In this document: piece after piece, positions 36,073 through 43,473 of the stretch | How the letters are laid out: every line of letters begins with the position of its first letter | Position numbering within the stretch: the stretch's first letter is position 1 | Assembly: GCA_000993685.1 (NCBI GenBank) | Contig: LBWP01000012.1 | Coordinates: forward strand, 1-59,744 | Length of the DNA: 59,744 nt | Reading direction: 5' to 3' | Source of the DNA: Candidatus Woesebacteria bacterium GW2011_GWA1_39_21 | GTDB taxonomy: Bacteria > Patescibacteriota > Microgenomatia > UBA8517 | Notes under the pieces: generated by a model | The model's database searches: none | What the model was told of the DNA's origin: nothing | What the model saw: only the letters and a program-made list of their open reading frames with translations | Position numbers and translations under genes: made by a program

Positions 36073-36186
36073 TCAAAGCTCACTTTCCTTCGGTCTGTAT
36101 TGAAGGGCTTCCGCTATGTGATTAGTCGTGATATCCTTTACTCCCTCCAAATCTGCAATCATCCGAGCGATTTTTATTACTTTAAA
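36073..36186 (-). pseudogene. Displaced second copy of the yifB/comM 3' end (island boundary)
   Basis: Translates FKVIKIARMIADLEGVKDITTNHIAEALQYRPKESEL* versus FKVIKIARTIADLAGEKDILTSHLAEALQYRPKESEF* at 41924-42037. Confidence 0.9.
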
Positions 36187-36208
36187 GAAATATTTTATTC
36201 ATTGTTAT

Positions 36209-37009
36209 TTATAAGTCAGACTTCCTTTTTAAACTATTAATCCTATTTTTTCCGTCTTCGAGTAAATATACCCTCATTTCAGCTGGTATCCTTTCCCACC
36301 GACTTAGGCACCTGAAAGGTGCCGCTACTTCGACAGGAGTTTCCGCCGAATATTCTTTTAAAAACCGATGTGTAATATTGTCCTTCAACCTTTCTAAAAG
36401 CTCTTCGCCATTGTTTTTATTATCTACCAAAATTTTGGTTCCACAAACATACCTATCTACGAGAGGACCTGGTACAAAACTACCATTGGGTGTTAACAAA
36501 AACGCTGGGAAAAACGTTACTTCTCTCCCGGAAAACAACCAATATGTTTTTGAAAATTTAACCAATCTACCATCAAAAGTTCGTTGAGAATAGTCCTGGT
36601 TAGGGTTGAAGTTACCTGAATTTCGAATTGCTAATAAGTACACATCTTTGTCCAGATTAACTAAATCCGTATTAACCACGTCTACAAACGATCGTGAAAC
36701 TGTTATATCAATTCCGACTGGAACATCTTTTAAAAAACTTTTTATTTGTAACATATCTATCCCCTGGCTTTCTTTTGAAATTGTTAGGCAATCATGCAAT
36801 CCTGAAATTAAAGGTTGTAATAGATTGTCGCCTTTCACTTTTTCCAGTCCATTTATTTCTGGAGTAACTACCTCGATATCAATATCTGAAGTTGGTTTGG
36901 GTAAACCATATGCCCTTGAGCCTTCAAGTAATATGTAATCAGATAGCGGGGAAAAAATTTCAACCACCCTCTCAATTATTTCGTTAGAAAAGCGTTCATG
37001 TGATGACAT
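36209..37009 (-). CDS. Pol-beta-type nucleotidyltransferase domain protein
   Basis: LEGSRAYG...SDIDI...IDIT motif. Confidence 0.7.
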   Translation of the reverse strand: MSSHERFSNEIIERVVEIFSPLSDYILLEGSRAYGLPKPTSDIDIEVVTPEINGLEKVKGDNLLQPLISGLHDCLTISKESQGIDMLQIKSFLKDVPVGIDITVSRSFVDVVNTDLVNLDKDVYLLAIRNSGNFNPNQDYSQRTFDGRLVKFSKTYWLFSGREVTFFPAFLLTPNGSFVPGPLVDRYVCGTKILVDNKNNGEELLERLKDNITHRFLKEYSAETPVEVAAPFRCLSRWERIPAEMRVYLLEDGKNRINSLKRKSDL

Positions 37010-37113
37010 AGTAAGTGAAGTATATAACACATAACCTATTATGGGATATATTTCTGTTTTTGTATTTTGATTTAAGGATATTAATTAATATACAATACGA
37101 TCATAGACATCCA

Positions 37114-38124
37114 ATGAAAATATTAGTTACAGGGGGTTCAGGTTATATCGGTAGTCACACTTGTTTAGAACTACTTAAAATGAATTACGAAGTTGCAGTA
37201 ATTGACAACTTGAGCAACAGCAAGAAGACAAGTCTGAAAAGAGTCGAAAAAATAACAAAAAACAAAATAGACTTTTTTAAAGTTGATTTGCTCGATTTAA
37301 AAAAATTAAATCATGTTTTTGACAAATTCACTCCCGATGCAGTAATACACTTTGCTGGGAAAAAAGCAGTAGGGGAATCGGTAATAAAACCTATAGAATA
37401 TTATAAAAACAACCTAGGTGGAACAATAAATTTAATTGAGGTAATGAAAAACCATAATATTAAAAAATTAATCTTCAGCTCCTCCTGTACTGTATACGGC
37501 TTGCCCAATAAAGTCCCTATAAAAGAAGATTTTCCTGTGTCGGCGGTAAATCCCTACGGCAGGACAAAACTTTTTATTGAATTTCTTTTACAGGACGTCT
37601 CTCAGTCGGATCCCAATTGGAATATTATTGTTTTAAGATATTTCAATCCCGTCGGAGCCGATCAAAGCGGTATTATTGGGGAAGATCCAAACGGAATTCC
37701 TAATAATCTATTTCCGTACATAACTCAGGTGGCTGTCGGAAAATTGCCTATACTTTCAATCTACGGTAATGATTACCCTACTCCTGACGGAACCTGTATC
37801 AGAGATTATATCCATGTAAGTGATTTAGCTTTCGGTCATGTAAAAGCTATCGATAAACTACGCAAATCTTCAGGTACTAATACATATAACTTAGGAACGG
37901 GCAAAGGTTACAGCGTTCTAGAAGTGCTCTCTACATTCGAAAAAGTGACGGGTAAAAATATTCCTCACCGATTCGTTAAAAGAAGAGAAGGTGATGTATC
38001 AGCTTCATATTCGGATACAACCAAGGCTCGCCGGGAGTTGGGGTGGAAAGCTAATAAAAATCTCGAAGACATGTGCAAAGATGCGTGGCATTTCCAATCT
38101 TTGAATCCCCGAGGGTACAACTGA
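37114..38124 (+). CDS. galE: UDP-glucose 4-epimerase
   Basis: GGSGYIGSH, KAVGES, YGRTK, LRYFNPVGA, RDYIHV. ATG 37114. Confidence 0.95.
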   Translation: MKILVTGGSGYIGSHTCLELLKMNYEVAVIDNLSNSKKTSLKRVEKITKNKIDFFKVDLLDLKKLNHVFDKFTPDAVIHFAGKKAVGESVIKPIEYYKNNLGGTINLIEVMKNHNIKKLIFSSSCTVYGLPNKVPIKEDFPVSAVNPYGRTKLFIEFLLQDVSQSDPNWNIIVLRYFNPVGADQSGIIGEDPNGIPNNLFPYITQVAVGKLPILSIYGNDYPTPDGTCIRDYIHVSDLAFGHVKAIDKLRKSSGTNTYNLGTGKGYSVLEVLSTFEKVTGKNIPHRFVKRREGDVSASYSDTTKARRELGWKANKNLEDMCKDAWHFQSLNPRGYN

Positions 38125-38145
38125 TCAACTTTATGGTTAAATAAA

Positions 38146-38604
38146 TTATTCTATTTCCCCAATATACTCCCCCTCTTTTGAAAATCCTTCATTAAAATCT
38201 TCAAGTAGTTTAGCGGATAAAGTTTTTGGCAAGAGATTATCAGGTAAATTATCAATATCAAGCCATGTTAACCAAACATCTCCGTCAGGATGTTGGGGAT
38301 CTTTCATACCTTCAAGTTTCTCTGTTTTGTCAATATTTCCTAATATAAACAGCTCTATACTATGTTCATCCTCATCAAGTTTGATAAAATCACGAACGTA
38401 GAGAATTTTTTGAAAATCAAACTTCACATCTTCCCCACATTCCTCTCTGGTTTCCCTTATACACGCATCCTTTATTGTTTCCCCATACTCCAAGTGACCG
38501 CCAATATAATGATAGAAATCACTTTTTTTTCGATACTGAACTAAAACTTTCTTGTCATGAATTACTACAAGCCTTACTCGTACATTAATCCTCTTATTTA
38601 ATTT
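38146..38604 (-). CDS. NUDIX hydrolase, 5' end lacking a canonical start
   Basis: Nudix box GGHLEYGETIKDACIRETREECG. The frame is open 37 codons upstream of the annotated TTG (..RINVRVRLVVIHDKKVLV..). Confidence 0.75.
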   Translation of the reverse strand, partial: KLNKRINVRVRLVVIHDKKVLVQYRKKSDFYHYIGGHLEYGETIKDACIRETREECGEDVKFDFQKILYVRDFIKLDEDEHSIELFILGNIDKTEKLEGMKDPQHPDGDVWLTWLDIDNLPDNLLPKTLSAKLLEDFNEGFSKEGEYIGEIE

Positions 38605-41604: not shown

Positions 41605-41649
41605 AAACTCGATTTATCAAAGACAAAATAAAGATTATTTACGAATCGT

Positions 41650-41807
41650 TTGACAATCCTATAATATGCGAAGTAAAATACGGAATATGTTTGGGATATA
41701 CTCTTTCACCCTAAGGCTGACATTAACTCCTCGCAGGAGAGTATAGCTTTTAGTGAGAGGAAATTCTTATTCCTTATAATACCTCTCATAAAAGAGAGGT
41801 CTTTTTG
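41650..41807 (+). promoter_or_regulatory. Putative arginine leader-peptide attenuator
   Basis: TTGACA-18-TAAAAT; ORF 41687-41746 MFGIYSFTLRLTLTPRRRV*; TGAGAGG (41754-60) competes with terminator ACCTCTC-ATAAAA-GAGAGGT-CTTTTT. Confidence 0.7.
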
Positions 41808-41818
41808 TTATTAAAAAT

Positions 41819-41896
41819 ATGAGTATAGAAAAAATCGATTTGAAAGCTGGATTGTTATCTGATAGAACCGCTAAAGAATTCGGCACCAAGGTTTAA
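41819..41896 (+). pseudogene. 25-codon 5' stub of the attenuator-controlled gene
   Basis: MSIEKIDLKAGLLSDRTAKEFGTKV* immediately after the terminator, ending at the island edge. Confidence 0.45.
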
Positions 41897-41923
41897 TTAA
41901 ATTCCAACACCAAGTCAGAGGTT

Positions 41924-43473
41924 TTAAAATTCACTCTCTTTCGGACGATACTGAAGCGCTTCGGCAAGATGTGAAGTCAAAATATCTTTTTCACCGGCCA
42001 AATCTGCAATTGTTCTGGCAATTTTTATAACTTTAAAATAACTTCTGGCTGTTAAGTTCATTGCATTTGTTGCCGAGACCATCATTGTACGACAGCCAAC
42101 GGAGAGTTGACAGAATTCCTTAACGCTTTTGGTTGTCATTTCACTGTGATTCCTGCGCGCGCAGGCGAGTTTGTGTTTTTATATCGTCTAGTTTGAACAT
42201 CTCTCGCCTTCTGAACTCTTTTTTGGATTTCTTCGGACGATTCCCTTTTGTTGTTTCCCCTTCGATCATCATCTACCAGTTTTTGTGTTTCAACCGACGG
42301 AACATCAATGTGCATATCAATCCGATCCAGAATCGGACCCGACACTCTTTTTTGATACCTGGAAACCATTCCGGGAAGGCACTTGCACGGTTTTTTCGGG
42401 TCACCAAAATAACCGCACGGACAGGGATTGCTTGCGGCTACCAGTAAAAATTGTGCCGGATAAGTCACAGTACCTTTAGCTCTGGATATAGTTATCTTTG
42501 CATCTTCCATTGGCTGTCTTAATGCCTCCAAAACATGTCTGGGAAATTCGGGAAACTCGTCCAAAAACAAAACCCCTCGATGTGCCAGCGATACTTCACC
42601 TGGTGACGGATTGGTTCCCCCTCCAATAAGACCGATCCTGCTTGTTGTATGATGCGGACACCTAAATGGTCTTGATGTAATAATTGATTGACCAATCGGC
42701 AAATTTCCAGTAATCGAGTAGATTTTTGTTACTTCCAAAGCCTCGTCTTCAGTAAAGCGTGGAAGAATCCCTGGCAACGCTCTGGCAAGCATCGTTTTTC
42801 CGCTACCAGGTGAACCCTTCATAAAAATATTGTGTGACCCGGAAGCGGCGATTTCTATCGCCCTTTTTGCCGATTCCTGTCCGACAATTTCAGAAAAATC
42901 AAATTCTGCGTCGGCGGTTTTCAAAAGTGCCGATAGTCCAATTGGTTTAAGGCTTGGTACCTTAACAGTTCCTGCAGTAAACCTGACTAATTCTAAAAGA
43001 GATTCTATCGGGTAGACTTTAATTCCGCTTACAACTGCAGCCTCATTTTCATTAACTTTGGGAATAAAAACTGCGCGCATCCCTTTTTCTTTCGCCAAAT
43101 AAACCAGAGGTAAAATTCCGTTAGTATGGCGCAGAGTTCCATCCAAGGACATCTCACCAAAAAACAAAAGGCCGTCGACTTTGGGTGCAATTTGTCCGGA
43201 AGCGATTAAAATTCCCAATGCGATCGGCAGGTCGTACGAAGGACCGGCTTTGGGAAGATCGGCGGGGGCTAGATTTACAGTAATTCTCCTGACCGGAAAA
43301 TCAGCTCCGGAGTTTTTAATTGCCGAGCGAACTCTCTCTTTACTTTCCTCAACTGCTTTATCTGGAAGTCCGACAATCGTAAACGAAGGCAAACCTTCCT
43401 GGATGTCAACCTCAACGTCAATCAACGTAGCATTTAACCCAATCGTTGCCCCTGAAGTAATCTTTGCGAGCAT
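41924..43473 (-). pseudogene. comM: YifB/ComM Mg-chelatase-like AAA+ ATPase, split by a 14-bp insertion (ORFs 42136-43473 and 41924-42139)
   Basis: IVGLPD, NLAPADL.K.G..YDLPIA, GSPGSGKT, HRGVLFLDE, NPCPCG, LDRID; the C-terminal ARTIADL..EALQYR is in another frame. Confidence 0.85.

Follow-up and report, generated by a model that had tools for sequence, protein, structure and literature searches.

Ultra-small Patescibacteria possess very few biosynthetic genes, which leaves the gain and loss of such genes as an open question. In the groundwater bacterium Candidatus Woesebacteria bacterium GW2011_GWA1_39_21 (GCA_000993685.1; 1.04 Mb in 30 contigs), two arginine-pathway genes stand among repeated pieces of comM, the helicase gene of DNA uptake and transformation, and the locus raises the question of how they came to be there. 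The DNA analysed, here called the window, is the whole 59,744-nt stretch of LBWP01000012.1. In it a recombinase-less island of accessory genes, built in two layers, separates the comM 3′ end from dtd. The island was compared with 125 genomes of the family (labels G0xx) and with assembled contigs, rather than reads, from four public runs, including X1, X3 and X5.

Gene content of the island

Profile searches with Pfam and NCBIfam gave the gene order dtd, NTP_transf_2 protein, galE, NUDIX, argH, argG, comM, with GalE, ArgH and ArgG exceeding their NCBIfam cut-offs. The features of the locus are as follows.

35578..36027, minus strand: dtd (D-Tyr-tRNA deacylase; Pfam Tyr_Deacylase, E 8e-54), the conserved right-hand neighbour of comM in relatives
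36073..36186, minus strand: copy C, comprising the core and the whole of a comM tail (38 codons plus stop), with its 5′ end at the core, 46 nt upstream of dtd
36209..37030, minus strand: nucleotidyltransferase-domain protein of 273 aa (Pfam NTP_transf_2, E 6e-5), putatively older module
37015..38124, plus strand: galE (UDP-glucose 4-epimerase; TIGR01179, 455.9 bits against a cut-off of 262.3), putatively older module
38146..38597, minus strand: NUDIX hydrolase gene without a start codon (Pfam NUDIX, E 5e-12), cut by joint B
38600..38671, minus strand: copy B, ~23 codons of comM ending at the core (38601-38617)
38693..38722, plus strand: promoter-like site upstream of the leader (12/12 consensus hexamer positions, spacer 18)
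38738..38920, plus strand: T-box-like leader preceding argH-argG, its first stem very short (RF00230, 34 bits, E 7e-5)
38960..40321, plus strand: argH (argininosuccinate lyase; TIGR00838, 330.4 bits against a cut-off of 279.5)
40333..41604, plus strand: argG (argininosuccinate synthase; NF001770, 467 bits against a cut-off of 334)
41781..41800, plus strand: terminator-like hairpin, 177 nt after argG
41924..43473, minus strand: comM, split between ORFs 42136-43473 and 41924-42139 (Pfam ChlI, Mg_chelatase and Mg_chelatase_C), with the core of copy A at 42021-42037 in its tail
42152..42165, no strand assigned: GC-rich 14-nt palindrome within a comM insertion that is absent from relatives at that place

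The first-pass annotation had divided these genes into two modules, T-box, argH, argG and attenuator on one side and NUDIX, galE and nucleotidyltransferase on the other, and the genes of both are as it described them. The regulatory labels are weaker: the leader match spans model positions 1-219 with most of stem I replaced and, at 34 bits, stays below the Rfam gathering score of 93, a threshold at which Rfam gave no match in the whole window, and the supposed attenuator resembles a terminator hairpin. In G402 and G281, argH is likewise preceded by a similar leader (40.7 and 53.6 bits, respectively). The galE profile match begins at residue 35, and the real start of the gene is probably ~100 nt inside the ORF. 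The nucleotidyltransferase gene, whose protein has no sequence match in NCBIfam or PDB, is present in 2 of the 125 family genomes and argG in 4. Within the family ArgG reaches 66% identity at best, whereas its best matches, at 75–82%, are Microgenomates, Daviesbacteria and Levybacteria proteins; judged by these protein identities, ArgG is foreign in origin. The G+C content of the modules (34–40%, against 38% for the window) carries no foreign signal.

In the window comM falls into two parts of 445 and 71 aa that overlap in ATGA at 42136-42139. All four runs have contigs with 7 additional nucleotides behind 42146, which make up 100% of the local depth and restore the comM frame, and thus the frameshift of the window is unsupported.

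Three copies of the comM tail

The core, TTTAAAGTWATAAAAAT, lies on the minus strand at 36170-36186, 38601-38617 and 42021-42037. Three matches in the window compare with 0.06 expected, a count reached in 0 of 100 shuffles, and a search of the 30 contigs of the genome found none beyond these three sites. Direct repeats of a common core are present at the element ends, and the three comM segments of the first-pass annotation are real and lie where it had placed them. Copy B is, as described there, the upstream half plus the core, 38600-38641 being identical to 42020-42061 of copy A at 39 of 42 positions. Its likeness to comM extends ~11 codons past these 42 nt, to ~38671 (translation KIMIAETSSMNLSARSYFKVIKIK*; protein-level comM match at 38597-38668, E 1.9e-4). 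Copy C, described as the core with a diverged but full comM 3′ end adjoining dtd, proved to be an in-frame comM tail (FFKVIKIARMIADLEGVKDITTNHIAEALQYRPKESEL*, matching ComM at E 4.8e-12), with 72% identity between 36075-36186 and 41926-42037 over 112 nt. The identity of copy C to the element-borne tail type found in other genera is 85%, against 73–74% to G002 and G014, and copy C is therefore not simply the displaced native tail. The tail pieces of the window start at query residues 82 and 95 of 135, and the breakpoints fall at codons ~455-477 of comM.

The comM–dtd interval in relatives

The comM–dtd interval is an insertion hotspot throughout the family. Its length could be computed (by hand) for 42 relatives whose comM and dtd share a contig and lie no more than 30 kb apart: 19 have at most 300 nt, 9 have 301–1700 nt and 14 carry 2.7–27 kb of differing genes. 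Comparing this adjacency, a check proposed with the first-pass annotation, therefore revealed both empty alleles (in G014 the two genes are 478 nt apart, with the same flanking genes) and variable cargo, which differs even within a genus (G002, G003). In relatives dtd adjoins comM or a comM tail, and with cargo blocks and spare tails lying between the two genes, the proposal that comM is an accretion site is supported.

Extra comM tails occur in 11 of the 125 family genomes; none were found in 14 more genomes of the order. The tails form two classes by their starts; one of the junction comparisons drawn on covered 9 of 14 rows, with those of G043, G002, G014 and G089 outside it. Tails of one class start at codon ~386, with a conserved element-side motif, a signature of site-specific events. 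Those of the other start within ~10 nt of the core in four genomes, including G083, G064 (contig 43) and G052, and no element-side sequence is conserved at these four junctions, unlike in the codon-386 class. Because copy C of the window (G000_C) and the pieces of G052 and G083 are all of the element-borne type, their shared boundary may stem from one inherited event.

That comM/yifB is a recurrent integration target, as the first-pass annotation had held, is known for large serine recombinases: Mg-chelatase/ComM genes are a major target of these enzymes (Durrant et al. 2022, PMC10083194). In the present family, the comM islands of G086 and G064 carry orthologous large serine recombinases (72% identical) and G013 carries another, while the islands of G003 and G054 have the same codon-386 junction and no recombinase. 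Replacement of the comM 3′ end is found in the family, borne by elements of the codon-386 class, but successive site-specific insertions at the core of the window are not supported.

The description of the island as integrase-less was borne out, with no recombinase and no integrase, resolvase or transposase family match among the ORFs from dtd to comM. A recombinase beside the same core in relatives was also sought; the ORFs of the islands in G052 and G083 include none, in a search that stopped short of the 900 nt preceding the contig-43 piece of G064. Elsewhere, on contigs C1, C2 and C8, the genome encodes three tyrosine recombinases and one large serine recombinase. The latter is 21–24% identical to the comM-associated enzymes and has homologues in 86 of the 125 family genomes; among the matches listed for genomes with extra tails, none is near a comM tail piece on the same contig.

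Joint B and an allele without argH-argG

The argH-argG block is a minority allele, present in only part of the sampled population. In the population contigs, which give coarse depths and lose rare forms, depth over 35000-38600 was 17, 8.8 and ~5 in X1, X3 and X5, respectively, and over 38913-41922 it was 3.3–8.5, 1.2–6.4 and 0–3. In the major allele comM leads straight into an intact NUDIX gene, and a 1,559-nt X5 contig that reads 37649-38600, 42 other letters and then 41952-42509 represents this module-free form. A 21-kb X1 contig departs from the window at 38600, and contigs of three runs break or diverge at exactly this position. No second copy of either allele was found in the genome bin.

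At joint B (38601/38600) the core is fused to NUDIX codon ~4, with at most 1 nt shared, and both the NUDIX ATG and the resident comM tail are missing. The NUDIX gene is 78% (aa) and 76% (nt) identical to a G043 gene, and the likeness stops at 38597, 3 nt from core B. In G043 a comM tail runs straight into the ATG of the NUDIX orthologue, and the module-free allele, read by eye, keeps the NUDIX start in the same way. A conservative att × att exchange would have kept both the resident tail and the ATG, and joint B as it stands does not fit one. Cores A and B have the same sequence and share none of the three variants that the module-free allele has in its core, which speaks against a single crossover inside the core if that allele resembles the recipient. 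The actual recipient may have been a different allele, so that the argument carries less weight. Together, joint geometry and core type speak against the clean two-step site-specific insertion of the first-pass annotation. Between the window and the module-free allele there are 10 listed differences in 41984-42047 and none over 42048-42558 bar the 7-nt indel. The last 36 nt, at least, of the module-free comM tail equal copy C, which points to exchange between copies.

The B–NUDIX joint is continuous only in the window's own assembly: public contigs stop at 38600, and none spans 38571-38630. Exact scans for joint B and for the NUDIX 5′ region gave 0 matches each in a metagenome contig collection that may leave out records of this genome and its close kin. 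Among the joints listed for the contigs of the four runs there was neither a core-to-core excision joint nor an A–B deletion (a 3,420-nt skip).

Formation of the island

We give a probability of roughly 55% to an island of two layers whose younger block was brought in either by recombination that used comM as its homologous anchor and closed illegitimately at the far end, or through insertion and a subsequent ~130-nt deletion. The order of events and the pathway that we infer are as follows. The older layer, consisting of a comM tail, NUDIX, galE and the nucleotidyltransferase gene, would have displaced an earlier comM tail, which would survive as copy C beside dtd. The younger layer, with its own promoter, T-box-like leader, argH, argG and terminator, would have come from another Microgenomates lineage, leaving the fresh tail A on one side and the old piece B on the other. 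Its near end would have recombined within comM homology upstream of the core, and its far end would have been joined illegitimately to NUDIX codon ~4, deleting the resident comM tail and the NUDIX start; insertion followed by the ~130-nt deletion would be equivalent. The many diverged comM tails of the family may have been seeded, at least partly, by large-serine-recombinase elements that replaced the tail from codon ~386, and such tails could then serve as portable homology for further exchange. Recombination of this kind assumes that this Woesebacteria is naturally transformable, for which the presence of comM is what was seen. A donor layout with a comM tail beside argG was not found in the four Microgenomatia loci with the closest ArgG (73–77% identity; 9–18 kb each), which carry argH-argG and no comM. 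The tail starts near the core in four genomes would not be predicted from random illegitimate joints and count against this main explanation.

The model of the first-pass annotation is two insertions at the 17-nt core, each with 3′-end replacement, by a recombinase lost or acting in trans; we consider it with conservative exchange and with joint B trimmed later by a small deletion. The three cores bound the modules, with B as left half plus core and C as core plus right half, the G083, G064 (contig 43) and G052 pieces begin within ~10 nt of the same place, the codon-386 class shows that site-specific tail replacement happens in the family, and the genome has tyrosine and serine recombinases elsewhere. 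We nevertheless regard it as unlikely: neither the window island nor the core-type islands of G052 and G083 contain a recombinase, the element sides of the four junctions lack conserved sequence, joint B has lost the resident tail and cuts NUDIX while the A and B cores are of one type, the core boundary may have been inherited from one event, and the genome's own serine recombinase is distant from the comM-associated ones, with its listed homologues in relatives away from comM tail pieces. More speculative, and distinctly improbable in our estimate, is that the core is the crossover site of an undescribed trans-acting system, encoded by the host or on another element, which would shuttle promoter-equipped metabolic cassettes among Microgenomates, with comM as an integron-like platform in 1-Mb genomes and joint B a product of later trimming.

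Both modules could also be decayed cargo of comM-targeting large-serine-recombinase elements whose recombinase gene was deleted later. Such elements are at hand in G086, G064 and G013, Mg-chelatase/ComM genes are a major target of the enzymes (PMC10083194), and G003 and G054 exemplify recombinase-less islands with the codon-386 junction. In the window, however, comM is continuous at codon 386 and has the native type of sequence, none of the tail pieces begins at that codon, and the breakpoints lie ~90 codons further on, so that we rate this reading as very improbable. We think equally little of the chance that the island is in part an assembly chimera, in which the assembler linked NUDIX at 38600 to an argH-argG block from a co-occurring strain or locus. 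The depth of the block is below that of its flanks, no public contig covers 38571-38630, in X1 the overlap between the block contig and its neighbour is 1 nt, compared with 30 for other adjoining contigs, and the window also has the unsupported 7-nt deletion in comM. Against this, no shared repeat exists at 38600 to cause a misjoin, a 10.5-kb X3 contig ends exactly at 38600, as at a real fork, the X1 block contig begins at 38600 without loose letters, and the depths sum (12.5 plus roughly 4–7, against 15–17 in the flanks).

Arginine-pathway genes with their own promoter and leader thus segregate as a presence/absence allele in natural groundwater populations, within a family-wide hotspot anchored on the gene of a transformation helicase. 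If comM tails do supply portable homology, or an att site that is used in trans, they would offer a simple route for metabolic gene flow, and comM–dtd would be a predictable place for strain-specific functions. The role of comM as a target and its serine-recombinase elements were already known.

Comparison with known systems

A literature search (supplements aside) found no paper on recombinase-less accretion at comM in Patescibacteria. Homology-facilitated illegitimate recombination occurs in naturally transformable bacteria such as Acinetobacter baylyi and Streptococcus pneumoniae. The younger layer has the same homologous anchor, with allele differences that stop at 42047, a far joint with ~1 nt shared, and recipient DNA lost in between (the resident tail and NUDIX start); that process is not marked by tail ends clustering at a single core, and transformation is here an assumption. 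Large-serine-recombinase elements (PMC10083194) use the same target gene and are carried in comM by G013, G086 and G064; displaced comM pieces mark the junctions. The window island differs in its lack of a recombinase, its metabolic cargo, its one illegitimate joint and its breakpoints at codons ~455-477 rather than the recombinase-associated ~350 and ~386. In tandem island arrays at tRNA or tmRNA genes, such as the ssrA islands of Dehalococcoides (PMC3146451), repeated 3′-end copies likewise bound successive modules and the target gene stays whole. Those islands have their own recombinases and exact direct repeats, whereas the repeats of the window are diverged (72–93%), vary in extent and do not all fall at the same crossover point. 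Finally, comM is also a recurrent home of accessory islands in Acinetobacter baumannii, where AbaR (Tn7-like) islands (PMC11441513, PMC7508600) carry transposition genes and interrupt and inactivate comM; the island of the window has no transposase family match, and its comM, counting the 7 nt found in every run, is kept whole by tail replacement.

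Three copies of a comM tail between comM and dtd

The genome of the window comprises 1.04 Mb in 30 contigs, of which the window is contig 12. When the ComM of a same-genus relative (G002) was used as the query, the closest named records were Candidatus Woesebacteria from groundwater, at 84% identity. Sequence comparison within the window recovered the three comM-tail repeats (copies A, B and C) as the first-pass annotation had described them. In minus-strand order, the locus reads:

41924-43473, minus strand: comM, first in order, containing copy A
between comM and the leader, plus strand: argG and argH, from ORF and family matches
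38693-38959, plus strand: leader and promoter, between argH and copy B
38600-38671, minus strand: copy B, a short comM piece between the promoter and the NUDIX gene
between copy B and galE, minus strand: NUDIX gene
between the NUDIX and nucleotidyltransferase genes, plus strand: galE
between galE and copy C, minus strand: nucleotidyltransferase gene
36073-36186, minus strand: copy C, a comM tail between the nucleotidyltransferase gene and dtd
last in order, minus strand: dtd

The 17-nt core of these repeats has three matches in the window (0.06 expected), and a search of all contigs of the genome found it nowhere else. Read in frame, copy C encodes the final 38 residues of ComM, and copy B holds ∼23 comM codons, stopping at the core. 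The argH-argG block with its leader and promoter is termed the younger module, and NUDIX, galE and the nucleotidyltransferase gene the older one.

In the window, comM is frameshifted (42136-42170) into two ORFs, of 445 and 71 aa, that overlap by ATGA. Contigs from all four public runs compared with the window carry 7 additional letters behind 42146, at full local depth, and since these restore a single frame, the frameshift probably reflects an error of assembly or else a rare variant. A GC-only 14-nt palindrome (42152-42165) lies inside a comM insertion absent from relatives and, with the 7 letters added, is part of an in-frame six-codon insertion. A 12-nt version of the palindrome recurs once in this 39% G+C genome, on contig C3 near 72049. 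In another genome (G140, locus L034), the 5′ boundary of a comM fragment falls at the same position in comM and bears a similar GC-rich motif.

A minority allele carries the argH-argG block

The public-run data were the assembled contigs of four runs from three studies. Depth over 35000-38600 was 17 in run X1, 8.8 in X3 and about 5 in X5, and over 38913-41922 it was 3.3-8.5, 1.2-6.4 and 0-3, respectively. Thus, the argH-argG block is a minority allele in these runs. In one X5 contig, only 42 other letters separate NUDIX (37649-38600) from comM (41952-42509). Reading these letters, and those of the X1 contig described below, by eye on the comM strand gives a module-free allele with a complete comM, a stop codon and, within a few bases, an ATG-started NUDIX. 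Relative G043 has a comM tail piece ending ...GEDVI, followed by the ATG of a NUDIX gene that shares 78% identity with that of the window. Because the two share this arrangement, comM-NUDIX adjacency is, on sequence comparison, taken as the older state and the window allele as derived.

A 21-kb contig of X1 departs from the window at 38600 and, after 26 other letters, matches the copy C region from 36085. At least 36 nt of the comM tail of the major allele are identical to copy C (36085-36120) while the neighbouring sequence differs, a pattern suggesting that the tail copies have undergone gene conversion.

Entry of the younger module

The first-pass annotation had suggested two successive site-specific insertions. 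For the younger module, the geometry of joint B (the fusion of core B to NUDIX at 38601/38600) and the core variants do not support clean insertion of this kind at the core; for the older module it may hold. NUDIX likeness in the window stops 3 nt from core B, with the ATG missing, and the two sides of the joint have at most one T in common. The resident comM tail, expected after B under conservative exchange, is absent. Between 41984 and 42047 the window has 10 listed differences from the module-free allele, three of them inside the core, and over 42048-42558 the 7-nt indel is the sole difference. Cores A and B match each other exactly. If the recipient resembled the module-free allele, the core identity, the variants and the missing tail together rule out a single reciprocal crossover inside the core.

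The simplest reading is that the younger module entered by replacement. The donor segment would have consisted of comM tail A, a spacer, argG, argH, the leader, the promoter and an old comM piece B, and would have been anchored by homology in comM, its far end being joined illegitimately inside NUDIX. Insertion followed by a ∼130-nt deletion could have led to the same product and would fit equally well. No public contig in the four runs spans the B-NUDIX joint, and a metagenome contig collection scanned for joint B and the NUDIX 5′ region gave 0 matches. In three runs contigs fork or stop exactly at 38600, and such ends fit a real fork.

Three tyrosine recombinases and one large serine recombinase are encoded in the genome, and no link was found between these four and the core; one of them may nevertheless act there in trans. 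The serine recombinase gene (contig C2, 1-1373) runs off the contig start, and its product is 21-24% identical to the comM-associated ones. Its relatives occur in 86/125 genomes of the bacterial family, often as several copies per genome and often at contig ends, a pattern that suggests an abundant mobile element. None of the matches listed lies next to a comM tail.

Origin of the arginine cargo

Genes for argG were found in 4 of 125 family genomes (best in-family identity 66%) and 44 of 401 sampled genomes of the class; the nucleotidyltransferase gene was found in 2/125 family genomes. The closest ArgG proteins, at 75-82% identity, are named as other Microgenomates lineages. In four genomes with such ArgG, comM was not found near argH-argG within the 9-18 kb covered. 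Two of these four have a T-box-like leader in the same place, which argues that the leader, argH and argG travel as one operon. Base composition of the modules gave no foreign signal.

Ahead of argH-argG in the window, a perfect-consensus promoter precedes a T-box-like leader whose first stem is very short. On inspection by eye, this stem has CGC, an Arg codon, in its loop, and the T-box motif is followed by a terminator-like stem. Similar leaders lie upstream of argH in two other Microgenomatia genomes (L129 11050-11211; L130 4099-4339); all three score below the Rfam gathering threshold.

comM as an accretion site across the family

Gaps, cargo and extra tails in relatives support the view that comM is a site of accretion where its tail is replaced, and extend this view to the whole family. 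Gaps were computed by hand from comM-tail and dtd positions in 42 family genomes with both genes on one contig within 30 kb: 19 were of 300 nt or less, nine of 301-1700 nt and 14 of 2.7-27 kb. In G014, from another genus, the order is sod-crp-comM-dtd-hyp-endoIII-DUF4446-DUF3048, with comM and dtd only 478 nt apart. In two same-genus genomes this interval is filled by very different genes, 6.9 kb in G002 and 6.2 kb in G003, and in G003 a second comM tail adjoins dtd. The synteny is lost in more distant family members. Extra comM tail pieces were present in 11/125 family genomes scanned and in none of 14 further genomes of the order. Most cargo genes of the examined islands are metabolic or relate to nucleotides: NUDIX, Maf, Ham1, thymidylate kinase, deaminase, phosphoribosyltransferase, radical-SAM enzymes, kinases and two-component systems.

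G043 (L027 3300-3720) holds a three-tier stack of comM, a 4.6-kb island, a tail piece from ∼codon 448, a remnant of the last ∼14 codons, and NUDIX. A 269-aa ORF in the comM island of G052 (L029 4154-4963) has a Kunitz/BPTI domain (E = 3e-13), unusual in bacteria.

Tail pieces starting at ∼ComM codon 386 (class 1) were aligned as nine pieces from seven genomes. The junction is visible in eight of the nine; the starts fall within ∼2 nt of one another and have an element-side motif in common. The gene copies in these genomes have one tail type, almost identical in nucleotide sequence across genera, and this near-identity marks what looks like an element-borne, mobile replacement tail. The class 1 islands of G086 and G064 each hold a large serine recombinase, the two being orthologous (72% identical), and in G013 a third forms an in-frame fusion with the comM tail at ∼codon 350. 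The islands of G003 and G054, the latter with two modules in a row, contain no recombinase despite the same codon-386 junctions.

One type of ∼390-nt comM 3′ end, from codon 386, is near-identical across several genera (L022, L025, L026, L030, L041, L042), the rest of comM being 67-86% identical in protein. The 9.5-kb G013 element (L024 4916-14858) splits comM, its recombinase ORF plus comM tail measuring 716 aa, and carries a tyrosine recombinase, a MerR-like gene, a small terminase subunit and a HinP1I-like restriction enzyme with C5 methylase and Vsr. The G086 island (L026 11038-17314) also has a tyrosine recombinase, a LexA-like repressor and a SMODS/AGS_C cyclase (CBASS-like), and the G064 island (L032 2535-8930) an HTH_17 gene and an 894-aa helicase.

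Class 2 pieces start at the core and comprise copy C and pieces in G083, G064 (contig 43) and G052, the last three starting within ∼10 nt of it. The four junctions have no common element-side motif, and no recombinase was found among the islands of G052 and G083. Copy C is 85% identical to element-borne tails versus 73-74% to G002 and G014, and the G052 and G083 pieces are likewise of the element-borne type; the boundary common to these three may therefore go back to a single old event that then spread. Other tail pieces start elsewhere (∼codons 437-440, 453, 490 and 500).

Comparison with known systems

That comM is an island target, and that serine-recombinase elements reside in it, are already known. 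According to PMC10083194, 12.4% of predicted site-specific large serine recombinases target Mg-chelatase/ATP-dependent-protease homologues, and the class 1 serine recombinases in comM agree with this. New here are the metabolic layers that lack a recombinase, a second breakpoint that recurs in comM, and an arginine operon whose presence varies at the population level in a Patescibacteria genome.
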